Below are positions 34,209 through 63,550 of a stretch of 64,000 nucleotides of DNA, piece by piece. The notes below the pieces were generated by a model that was given only the letters and a program-made list of their open reading frames with translations, ran no database searches and was not told where the DNA came from. Position 1 is the stretch's first letter; every line of letters begins with the position of its first letter. The translations under genes and the position numbers were made by a program. This DNA comes from Felis catus (lineage: Eukaryota): NCBI RefSeq assembly GCF_018350175.1, contig NC_058368.1:100194001-100258000 (forward strand). Direction: 5' to 3'.

Positions 34209-35258
34209 ATGGAAACAGGAAAGAAAAAAAGGGTTTCCAACAAATTGCAACAGACTTTCCACCATTCTAAAGAACCCACCTTCCTTATCGACCAAGCCGT
34301 TCTATCTAGTGACTCCCATTCCAGCCTTTTGCCAGAAACAGAGCATGTCAATCCTGCTGGAAAAATAAAGATAGGACCTCTGACAAGACCTGGAACAGTG
34401 ATACTCTCAAAACGGTCCAGTAGGAGAATTATGTCAGAAAGTCCGCACAGCCCCCCTGTGATACCATCCCGCAGGCCTGGATTCCGGGTGTGCTATATCT
34501 GTGGCCGAGAATTTGGCTCCCAATCAATTGCCATTCACGAACCCCAGTGCTTGGAGAAGTGGCGTATTGAAAACAGCAAGTTGCCCAAACACCTGCGGAG
34601 GCCAGAACCCTCCAAACCACAGCCTCTCAGGGGCAGTGGGTCCTACAATCTTCAGGCCGTGAACGAAGCAGCGTTTCAAAGTTCCCAGGCTCAGCTGCTG
34701 CCCTGTGAATCCTGTGGCCGCACATTCTTGCCAGATCGTCGTCTTGTTCACCAGAGGAGCTGCAAGCCGAAGGATGAGGGGCCCAGAGCACCAAACCCCA
34801 ACCGTTTTGATGATCCGACTGGTGCCAGGAAAGCTGCTGGTGGCATCCCAGCCCGACCAAAGACTCTCATCTGCTACATTTGTGGTAGGGAATTTGGCAC
34901 TCTGTCCCTTCCTATTCATGAGCCCAAATGCCTAGAAAAGTGGCAAATAGAAAACGACCGGCTCCCCAGGGAGCTCCGCCGACCACTCCCACGGAAGCCT
35001 CAGCCCCTTCCAACTGGACAGTCCAACCAAGAGGAGCCAAGTCAAGCTCAGCTGGTGCCCTGTGCAAATTGCGGCCGGACCTTTGCCCCAGACCGCCTTC
35101 TGGTACACCAGAGAAGCTGTAGGGTTCAACCAAGTGCACCAAAAATTCAGAATTTGACCTTAGGGAGGAAAGGTGGCCTGAAAGAGTCCACGAATTCCAA
35201 GCAGCAAAGGAACATGGCAGTGCCCACTGTGACTGATAAGGTAACTCATGCCACGTGA
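34209..35258 (+). CDS. ZNF474: Zinc finger protein 474, main coding exon (349 aa): two tandem modules, each [18 protein letters not shown] plus [17 protein letters not shown] (C2HC-type fingers)
   Basis: Longest ORF in the window. First ATG at 34209 ([26 protein letters not shown]) closely resembles the human ZNF474 N-terminus as I recall it. Four Cys/His finger motifs are visible. Confidence 0.93.
35238..35246 (+). other. ZNF474: Candidate internal 5' splice donor AAG|GTAACT (phase 0, after ...VTDK)
   Basis: Near-consensus donor at 35240|35241, exactly on a codon boundary of the ORF. Confidence 0.65.
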
Positions 35259-35350
35259 GATGCATTGAGTGGACCTGGGGGTATATTCTGCCTCCAGGGG
35301 AGGGAGAGAAAACGATCCCCAGGATGCCCCACTCCTAGGATGTTTTCTTT

Positions 35351-35576
35351 TTTTTTTTTTTTTAATTTTTTTTAACATTTATTTATTTTTGAGACAGAGA
35401 GAGACAGAGCATGAACAGGGGAGGGGCAGAGAGAGAGGGAGACACAGAATCCGAAACAGGCTCCAGGCTCTGAGTGGTCAGCACAGAGCCCGACGCGAGG
35501 CTGGAACTCACGCACCGTGAGATCATGACCTGAGCCGAAGTCGGACGCTCAACCGACCGAGCCACCCAGGCGTCCC
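35351..35576 (-). mobile_element. Felid CanSINE in the ZNF474 3'UTR / start of the long intron
   Basis: TSD ggatgttttcttt. Confidence 0.93.
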
Positions 35577-35965
35577 GGATGTTTTCTTTCCGTGACTTAT
35601 TTCTGCCTCCCTGCAGCCTGTCCGACCCCAGGGGCTGTATCTCTGATGGCCAAGTAGATGCGAGAACATCCCCACCTGGTGGAGTTATAGTCCTTTTCCG
35701 CTCTGCCTAAAGAAAGAGAGATGGATGTCTTTCTTCCCTGATTCCTCATCCCAAGAATCCTTGGGAGAGACTGTTATTTGAAAATGAGTCATTAATGCTG
35801 TGTCTACATTGCAGAGATATAATCCCCATTCCAACGGCCCATATTTATGACCGGTTTATTTTAGTCATCTACCTTAGGAATTCATTTTTGGCAATGCGGG
35901 GTTATGCTGAGTTTATCTTGCTAAAATAGAATCTGTGTCAAAAGCCCCAAATGACTTTAGCAACA

Positions 35966-35971
35966 ATTAAA
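35966..35971 (+). terminator. Candidate poly(A) signal ATTAAA for the short ZNF474 transcript
   Basis: First AATAAA/ATTAAA hexamer I found after the stop; T-rich stretch (catgtttttcttt) about 45 nt downstream. Confidence 0.4.
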
Positions 35972-36443
35972 CACTGGAGCACTTGCAGAAATAGACGTGC
36001 TCTTCAAATACAGCATGTTTTTCTTTGAACACTCACACGATTGTAATATGTAGGAGATTAACTCCAGGGGAGTCTCCAAAGCAACGAGGTGTGGGTTCAT
36101 GGTTCTGGGAAGGGTTTAGCTCCCATTGATGCTCTGTACGCTGTATTTGGGTTGGATACGAGACTCTGCTCCCCACTTGGGCAACTGGGAATAAGCATGA
36201 GCCCATGGGCCCCCAACCTCTATGGTGAAGTATTGTTTACCTGAAGTGTCAGTGTCAGCCGGAATTGGGGAAGAATGTGTGTGGCCCCCCACGCAGCATG
36301 GTCCATGTGCTGCCCTTAAGCCCAGGAGTGGGTATACTGTTCTGTGTCATACCTTGCAGAATCTCAAATCATGAGAAATAGGAAGTGGTCAAAATTTTTT
36401 CTCCATGGCTTGGTACTAAAACACCCCACCTCTGCAAGGATTC

Positions 36444-60529: not shown

Positions 60530-60990
60530 TTTACTTGTCATATGTTTGTGTCTTTATTCATAAAATGTGTTTCTTGTAAACAACATAGAGTTGTTTTTTG
60601 TCTATACTATTTTTTTATCTAGTCTGTCAATCCTTGCCTTTTAATTATGTTCTTTAGTCCATTTATATTTGCTGCAATTATTGATATGTTTGCATTTAAG
60701 TCTACCATCTTGGCATTTTAATTCTATTTGTTCCTCTTGCCCTTTTTCTTTATTTGTTGGTTGCTTGGTTGGTCTTATATTCATCCTTTCCTCCTTTTCT
60801 TTGGCAAGTGATTAACTTACCATTTTTAAAAAATATCCTATCTCCCCTGTTGAATTCTTCACTCAGCCTCTTTGTGTGTCTTTGCCCTTTGTGATTACTG
60901 TAGAGAATAAAATTTGCATCTTTAGTATATCACATTCTATGTTTAAAAAATTACTTCAAGGAAAATGTAAGAATTCTATGATAATCTCTT
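60530..60990 (-). mobile_element. Old L1 ORF2-region fragment
   Basis: tgtgtttcttgtaaacaacatagagttg, gtccatttatattt..attattgatatg motifs. Confidence 0.6.
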
Positions 60991-61719
60991 TCCGATGTTT
61001 CATCCCTGCTTTAGTTCAGTTCAATGTACTATAGGTGTTAAATTCTCCCAGTGATAAGCTTCCTCTGTTTTGTACTTAGTATAAAGCCTGGAGCCAAAAG
61101 CCTGTTCCCTGTTCACCTGCTGCACCCTTAGAAGGCTGTGGCCCTTCATGCATGCAACACAGAGGGAGTCCTTCCTACTGCCCCCTTCCTCCTTAGGTCC
61201 CACACCTCCATCAGCAGTAGACTCTTCTTATCTGGTACCCAGTGCAAGGCCTAATTCTCCAGCTCGACCTTCCGATCCAGGCAGGCCCTGCATTCTTGAA
61301 TTGGTGAAGATTTCTCTCAACAGTCCTGCCTCTCTCCAATGTTAGACTGCCACCCGCTGTTACTGGATGTGAGACCTGGTGGATGGGAGGGTTTATGTAG
61401 ACAGTTCCTGCATGGCTCCTCCTTAGTAGGGTTCATGCTCACCTGTCCTGCCTTTTCTCTGTGGCAGACAACTACTGTCTCATATTCTTGTAAGGTTGGA
61501 GCATGGGAGGTGTTGGTTGTGCTGATGCACTCTCAGACTGAGGCAGTTCTTCTAGTTCATTAACTTACCTTGCAATCATGAGTCTCCAATGGACTCAAAA
61601 ATAACGGTTCTGTAAGTTCTCTGATTGGTTCTAATTGCTTAAGCAGGAGCAATGTTTCTTGTAACTTTCTATCCCCTGGACAGAAGCAGAAACACCTTTT
61701 CTGTTTTATCCTTAACTCT

Positions 61720-62330
61720 TCCTTAGATTTAGTCCTCCCAGAAACAAATGCTAAGTAAAGGATTTGAGGATTTGATTTCAAGTGGTTTATTTGGGAGGTG
61801 ATCCCAGGAAGCCCCAGTAGAGTAGTGGGAGGAAAGACAGGGAAGAGAAGGAAGTCTGTACAGGGTGTGAATGAGCACCTGTGCTGCAATCCCACGGAAC
61901 ACTGCATGGAATCAGCCTCAGTAAGGAAGTGGCTATTTATCCACCACCCGCTGCTTGTGATTGATTAGCTGCCCTGTCTATGGGTGGAGCATAGACCAGG
62001 TCAAAAAAGGCTGAGAGGGGCGCCTGGGTGGCGCAGTCGGTTGAGCGTCCGACTTCAGCCAGGTCACGATCTCGCGCTCCGTGAGTTCGAGCCCCGCGTC
62101 GGGCTCTGGGCTGATGGCTCAGAGCCTGGAGCCTGTTTCCGATTCTGTGTCTCCCTCTCTCTCTGCCCCTCCCCCGTTCATGCTCTGTCTCGCTCTGTCC
62201 CAAAAATAAATAAACGTTGAAAAAAAAAAAATTAAAAAAAAAAAAAAAAAGGCTGAGAGTCACAGGTACTTGCCAGAGGAAGTTGTCCATGTGTAAGGGA
62301 ATGTGGGAGGGTACCCAATGTCTGTTGTAA
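61720..62330. mobile_element. MaLR (MLT1-like) LTR remnant interrupted by a young SINE
   Basis: aagtggtttatttgggaggtgatcccaggaagc motif. Confidence 0.6.
62017..62244 (+). mobile_element. Young felid CanSINE
   Basis: TSD aaaaaaggctgaga; long A tail. Confidence 0.95.
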
Positions 62331-62770
62331 ACTCTCCAATGACACTTACAGCTTTAATTCTCAGGGATATTGGCATACTAGAGCCTGAGTTTAGCAAAAA
62401 GATGATTCAGACATGATTTATTTTTGTAGTCTCCTAGCATGGAGAATAACCAGGAGATAATTAATAATTATTAGATGAGAAAACACATTTTATAAGAAAA
62501 GCCAGTTTGTAGAACTCTAGTTAGTTCTTCTTTATTTCCTATCATCCTCCCAAACCCACATCTTCACACACACCCCACTCACTCAGATGGTATGGTTTAT
62601 TCCCTTAAGTGCCACAAAAGTTCAATTTACCTGACTGGTTGAAATTAGAAAACGAAAAACCAAAAAAAAAAAAAAAATGTGATTGTCTAGCTAATTTGAA
62701 TGTACTATAATTTTAACATATAATTTCTACACCTAAACTTTATCTAACAGATATTTTATATTACTTGTAG

Positions 62771-62951
62771 CCAGCAATGATAAGGCGTCCACCAACAATC
62801 ATCTGCTACATTTGTGGCCGTGAATATGGAACAAAATCCATTGCCATCCACGAGCCACAATGTCTGAAAAAATGGCATAACGAAAACAACTTGCTGCCCA
62901 AAGAGTTAAGGAGATCAGAACCCAAGAAACCAGAAGTCAGGACCATTACTG
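62771..62951 (+). CDS. Internal coding exon with a ZNF474-type finger ([60 protein letters not shown]); probably ZNF475/ZNF474-like, continuing beyond the window
   Basis: Acceptor ttacttgtag| with CTAAC branch-like motif at 62744-62748; strong donor G|GTAAGT at 62951|62952; clear homology to both ZNF474 modules. The ORF-track translation degenerates after the donor. Confidence 0.88.
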
Positions 62952-63550
62952 GTAAGTTTTTGAAAAGAAAAAAAGAAAGAAAGAAAGACTTGAGCGCATA
63001 TGGGGAGAATTTTCTCTGTGAAATTTTAAGAGGAGAGGTATTCTTTTCATACTTATTCAAACATCAGAAATCAGCAACATTTACTGTCTTCATTATAACC
63101 GAATAGGAAAAATGGTTCTAGAATGCCTGACCAAGGTGCCTTCAGATGCTGAGACATAAAGACGCTACTTCTGGCAAAACCATGCAAGGAGAGGGACCCC
63201 CTGGAATTTCTTGTATTTCCCGGAAGTTACTTTCCTATATTATCAAACATGATACTTAAAAAACATGAAGCCTCAAAAATCTTTCAGGGCATCTGGAGAC
63301 ATGTTTTCAAATAGGAATGTGTCTTCGCGTTCACAGAGCAGGGTACCAAACTCAAAGTGTGCAGGGTCCACTAGCCGGGGTGTAAAACTGAGTAAATTGA
63401 TCCATGTGTGACACGAGGGAAGCTGAGGGCCATGGGGAGCTGGAGAATTATGGACTCTCTCCAAAGGAGGCAGCTGGAAATTTAGCCTAGTGTGGGCATA
63501 GTTTTCAACAATACAAAAGAAACTGGAAATCTAGAAATCTGTATGCTTTG

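Follow-up and report, generated by a model that had tools for sequence, protein, structure and literature searches.

The closest known counterpart of the ZNF474 locus of the cat (Felis catus) is that of cattle, where isoform 1 (RefSeq NP_001098482, Swiss-Prot A6QQM4, AAI49902) is a protein of 454 amino acids (aa) with three zinc-finger modules, and isoform 2 (NP_001032567) is a 108-aa product starting at an internal methionine. By accession type, the cattle NP_ and AAI records presumably rest on mRNA or cDNA. Human differs in being annotated with two genes, ZNF474 (NP_997200.1, 364 aa), which corresponds to a short product, and ZNF475 (NP_001182464.2, 108 aa), which corresponds to a tail-only one. 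A similar layout is described for the composite exons of the IgM heavy chain and CSTF3 intron 3, where a would-be terminal exon likewise carries a splice donor and is followed by a large intron (PMC3708835, PMC2784480); composite terminal exons are usually found where the intron is large and the donor weak, with IgM as the classic example (PMC3708835). We analyzed a window of 64,000 nucleotides (nt) of cat DNA (assembly GCF_018350175.1, contig NC_058368.1, positions 100,194,001 to 100,258,000). Coordinates below are those of the window, and all features are on its + strand. The ZNF474 locus in the window is very probably one ancient three-module gene that would yield a long protein, a short four-finger protein, and a product comprised of module 3 only.

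When spliced as an internal exon, the main coding exon spans ∼1.24 kilobases (kb) at 34001..35240 and encodes modules 1 and 2, that is, four C2HC fingers, with the start ATG at 34209. It is preceded by a candidate acceptor (...ccccccag) ending at 34000, identified from the sequence only. The open reading frame (ORF) 34209–35258 encodes the 349-aa short form, and residues 1–344 of the felid long form map onto 34209–35240. The Pfam domain zf-C2HC_2 (PF13913) matches four stretches of the main ORF and one in the distal exon. The fingers are arranged in paired modules and the protein is orthologous to named ZNF474 proteins, as expected for this family. Inside the ORF lies a phase-0 donor, AAG/GTAACT (35238..35246, cut 35240/35241), at a boundary common to the annotated long forms and the alternative-exon forms. 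With an approximate scoring matrix, this donor ranks first among the 84 GT dinucleotides in 34002–36000 (score 5.0, the runner-up 1.9); it lacks the G at position +5, and the donor of the distal exon scores 6.7.

The distal exon (62771..62951, 181 nt) starts with a phase-0 acceptor, tgtag/CCAGCAATG, at 62770/62771, has an in-frame ATG at 62777, and ends with a phase-1 donor, CTG/GTAAGT. It holds finger 5 only, the first half of module 3. Finger 6 should lie beyond base 64000, as the window offers no separate match for the final ∼48 residues of the annotated long form. The intron 35241–62770 is large, at 27,530 nt. An earlier note on this DNA, made from the letters alone, had read the same donor, the five codons and TGA following it, the same acceptor, and the same intron length, and we reproduced all of these.

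The earlier note had further predicted that the two exons are joined in one protein, and such proteins exist. The main ORF best matches Panthera uncia ZNF474 isoform X1 (XP_049505033.1, 454 aa), which reads across the junction. This and the Prionailurus bengalensis model (XP_043442114.1), both of them predictions, are 98.8–99.7% identical to the cat over residues 1–344 (99.7% over 344 residues for ORF 34209–35258 against P. bengalensis), with the junction at the same bases; residues 345–404 of the felid long form match the distal exon at 100%. The junction is present in 13 of the 14 felid members listed from a 48-member cluster, the remaining one using another exon, and cattle isoform 1 has the same junction (VTDK-P.MIRRPP). 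The distal exon, when used as a query among longer proteins, gave 447 matches, with many mammalian proteins of 451–456 aa among the 120 listed. One joined protein (P0050) sits on an assembled contig of 2,961 nt, which cannot hold a 27.5-kb intron and therefore points to spliced RNA. Of 24 sequencing runs listed, 20 share at least half of the words of 34000–36000, 13 of these being RNA by guess; they count neither for nor against the junction.

The long, short, and stand-alone forms are all found in existing gene models of related species, the long one in the curated cattle record, which supports a single gene overall. As gene models of cats, cattle, and many other mammals already show this arrangement, it is ordinary; the three proteins are on record, and we add nothing as gene annotation. 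The novelty implied earlier for the join of ZNF474 with the distal exon was thus overstated.

We parsed the junction in 189 of 517 sequences. Among them, 76 connect straight to the distal exon, 88 continue through the donor with V, and 25 show another outcome, a class that includes several joins with cassette exons or variant spellings. As V after the donor and K before it (100% each) were built into this selection, these two figures were not used, and we counted again after aligning the sequences to the cattle protein. K precedes the donor in 179 of the 205 non-simian sequences as aligned, and in 201 after the correction of 22 one-residue slips; the four exceptions comprise a sturgeon sequence, a fragment, a mole-rat protein that stops short, and a single bat sequence with Q at this position. 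The sequences compared are not independent, and many could be ORFs predicted on DNA. The comparison proposed in the earlier note, in which the donor but not the codons after it should be conserved across mammals, came out as it had anticipated: the tail after the donor is variable, and its stop is lost in several lineages.

The conservation of K, like the curated cattle long form, argues against ZNF474 and ZNF475 being separate genes with their own promoters, with the long form as a minor read-through or a gene-prediction join. We consider such a pair of genes very unlikely. It would agree with the conserved upstream exon owned by the distal exon (see below), with the annotation of two products in human, other simians, lemurs such as Eulemur, puma, and bobcat, and with the lack of the junction in the 73 named simian proteins, but three-module proteins are found in lamprey, fishes, amphibians, marsupials, and most eutherian orders.

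To trace the modules further back, we used 25 chosen proteins. Three modules are present in lamprey, gar, bowfin, sterlet, coelacanth, Xenopus, a caecilian, two marsupials, and six eutherians; axolotl was counted with two, as its module 3 was missed by the search pattern. In the module tree (59 rows, 99 columns, 18 of 56 forks open), module 1 forms one group from amphioxus and lamprey to mammals (support 95/89), and mammalian module 3 groups with human ZNF475 (100/94). In each of six comparisons with the felid protein, module 3 is also the most conserved one (77–97%). The module counts and the tree suggest that the long form is likely ancestral and the split derived, and therefore that the long form is not a read-through of unrelated genes. 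A conjoined transcript of two ancestrally separate genes was also considered and rejected, given the three-module proteins of lamprey, gar, coelacanth, Xenopus, and marsupials and the grouping of mammalian module 3 with ZNF475.

Some records have other architectures. Bird, crocodile, and lizard records (P0331, P0329, P0333, P0336, and others) are single-module proteins of ∼100–200 aa that group with module 3, which may reflect a loss of modules 1 and 2 or incomplete models. The opossum model P0009 (1,067 aa) has a tandem expansion of module-2-like repeats, and the bilby model P0092 (708 aa) one of finger-6-like repeats. A penguin record flagged as a contaminant (P0276) clusters with mouse Zfp474, and some clusters contain unrelated short bacterial proteins.

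The short form would arise from reading through the donor into the tail VTHAT* (35241..35258), and the models of Lynx rufus and Puma end identically. Read-through short forms are annotated in bobcat and puma (ending in VTHAT), human (NP_997200), chimp, mouse (NP_080025/AAQ88275, the latter titled "testis-specific zinc finger protein"), and horse (NP_001420520). Cattle differ, as no curated read-through short form is present among the matches listed, only unnamed contig proteins ending in VICAT. The tail (V[IT]x[AG][TI]-like) has five residues in 68 of the 88 read-through sequences and 7–82 residues in the others, the stop after five codons being lost in 20 of the 88, across several lineages; the human tail has 18 residues.

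Downstream of the stop, the 3′ untranslated region of the short form contains a repeat of the short interspersed nuclear element (SINE) type at 35355..35570, with several other ∼210-nt copies found by self-BLAST at 72–84% identity; by its motif, we take it to be a carnivore SINE. The first A[AT]TAAA 3′ of the stop is the ATTAAA at 35966..35971, a candidate poly(A) signal with a U-rich run ∼50 nt downstream. Hence, the exon has a 5′ splice site (35241) upstream of a poly(A)-type hexamer, as composite exons do, with the hexamer itself at chance level. From the sequence, the short form may use the 35966 signal. The hexamer taken in the earlier note for the competing 3′ end is indeed there; its choice as the specific poly(A) site was overstated.

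Several observations weigh against a single gene with three products. The felid XP_ records are predictions, in part copies of each other. Module 3 does not form one supported group across all vertebrates, in a tree with few columns and many open forks. Many short sequences of ∼350 aa come from unnamed contigs, possibly DNA; these therefore show an ORF rather than a transcript. The + strand of the window contains 108 A[AT]TAAA hexamers, and from this density alone the chance of finding one within 710 nt is ∼0.70, which makes the 35966 hexamer weak evidence. Finally, the short models of other cats end in alternative terminal exons, one starting at 37878..37895 (DFICL*, as in tiger and lion isoform X5, with AATAAA at 38262 and 38448) and one at 38566..38673 (GKACMSS..., as in cheetah isoform X4, with AATAAA at 38812), so that short mRNAs may come from alternative last exons and not from cleavage in a composite exon.

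The last two points, together with the poor constraint on the tail seen in the lost stops, would fit the long form being the sole functional mRNA, the 349-aa form being unspliced or incompletely processed RNA, and any short mRNAs ending via the exons at 37878 and 38566. We regard this as unlikely, as the reference proteins of human, chimp, mouse, and horse represent the read-through form, and the tail has kept its five residues in most sequences, though shared ancestry could explain the latter.

The third product is associated with an exon inside the intron. The ZNF475-type upstream exon at 42909..42941 consists of an ATG and 11 codons in all (MALRCTKRNCK) and ends in a phase-0 donor, AAG/GTAACC (42941/42942). 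Its homology to the human ZNF475 upstream exon reaches back to ∼42736 (42736–42941). In this region, the 11-codon leader and the donor are intact; a frameshift and a stop interrupt the longer upstream frame that the ape and panda models have. A UniRef model of Felis catus has the identical leader, and 121-aa models in dog, ferret and other mustelids, pika, tree shrew, lemur, monkeys, gibbons, and tenrec begin with related leaders, as does mouse 1700034E13Rik. At the 42909 exon there is neither a CpG-island-like 500-nt bin nor an X-box-like match (up to three mismatches to the consensus); six loose X-box-like matches elsewhere in the window have no chance control and were not used. A 108-aa form from the methionine equivalent to 62777 is annotated in human (ZNF475, NP_001182464.2), cattle ("ZNF474 isoform 2", NP_001032567), and felid models. 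Both the stand-alone short product suggested earlier and the separately annotated human ZNF475 mentioned there are thus on record. The splice sites, their phases, the ORFs, and the leader exon are all directly visible in the cat sequence.

The distal exon thus has at least two upstream partners, the 35240 and 42941 donors. The earlier note missed this conserved upstream exon as well as four further annotated exons of the intron, and with them the exon choice is not two-way. The toggle between two proteins proposed there was therefore an overstatement; in addition, annotated splicing connects the 35240 donor with at least three exons besides the distal one. Two of the four are the terminal exons given above. 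The other two are an in-frame cassette exon of 39 codons at 48511..48627, used by cat and jaguarundi ZNF475-type models and flanked by ag and gt, and an alternative exon at 58670..58755, which is the terminal coding exon in Lynx pardinus and a cassette in the Neofelis and Prionailurus models.

Judging from the relatives, the cat would make all three products. The long form would result from splicing of 35240 to 62771; the short four-finger form from read-through of the donor, likely with polyadenylation in the intron; and the module-3-only (ZNF475) form from a start at the internal upstream exon. The large exon, the moderate donor without the +5 G, and the 27.5-kb intron may let cleavage compete with splicing, if the general model outlined in PMC3708835 applies. 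Compared with composite exons such as that of IgM, the cat locus has a putative poly(A) site, and its internal upstream exon adds the third product.

Simians appear to depart from this pattern. The junction was found in none of the 73 named monkey and ape proteins in partial cluster listings. Nineteen of these reach the donor, with K/V at the boundary in eight, R/V in ten, and K/I in one. By alignment, 27 simian sequences have K in ten cases, R in eleven, and T in one (a langur), the rest being two capuchin sequences that reach a stop ahead of the donor, two fragments, and an odd model. The change of K to R in Old World monkeys, which is probably one event, and that of V to I in owl monkey, consistent with the loss of GT, lie at the donor. 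Ape models join the ZNF474 and ZNF475 halves via a different donor within finger 3. The cat has a weak donor-like site, GTG/GTAGGG, in this finger (34882–34890), where the human and chimp models exit the main exon toward the ZNF475 exon; the codon at this site is R in cat and K in human.

The simian pattern suggests gene fission. Tentatively, and with some doubt, ZNF474/ZNF475 could be a gene in fission. Its three-module ancestor would have acquired a 3′ end within the intron and an internal start early in mammalian evolution; the halves would still be spliced together in cats, cattle, and most orders, and simians would have let the donor decay. Against this, the evidence consists of protein records from the partial listings, R/V remains compatible with a donor, and K/V is retained in apes. 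If confirmed at the DNA and RNA level, the simian loss of the join would be a tidy case of a gene splitting by way of its isoforms.

The products probably act as scaffolds in the cytoplasm or cilia and not as DNA-binding factors. The worm orthologue localises to cilia, single mutants having normal cilia length (PMC11317154); a lung study places ZNF474 among cilia genes (PMC11202239); and ZNF474 is testis-enriched in mouse and human, with males fertile after a mouse deletion of 1,004 base pairs (PMC12961275). Deleting the main exon alone would likely leave module 3 expressed because it has its own upstream exon. This is a practical point for work on this testis- and cilia-expressed gene, as the most conserved module may survive such a deletion. 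If fission is true, the fertile Zfp474 knockout mouse and human variant studies addressed half of the locus, leaving this module intact. In the literature, covered mostly as titles and the first lines of abstracts, we found no title or abstract start on the isoform structure of ZNF474/ZNF475, and papers under the name ZNF475 mostly concern KRAB zinc fingers and cancer, apparently another gene. This silence is a gap in print and not a discovery.

Two more features concern the distal exon and its module. A second AG lies four bases 3′ of the distal acceptor (62771–62775) and is apparently used by the Neofelis and Prionailurus models arriving from the 58670 exon; spliced from the 35240 donor, it would lead to an immediate stop. 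In addition, modules 1 and 2 are intronless in the single 1.24-kb exon, whereas module 3 is split between its two fingers by the phase-1 intron. Intron loss or a retro-copied duplication could possibly account for this difference.

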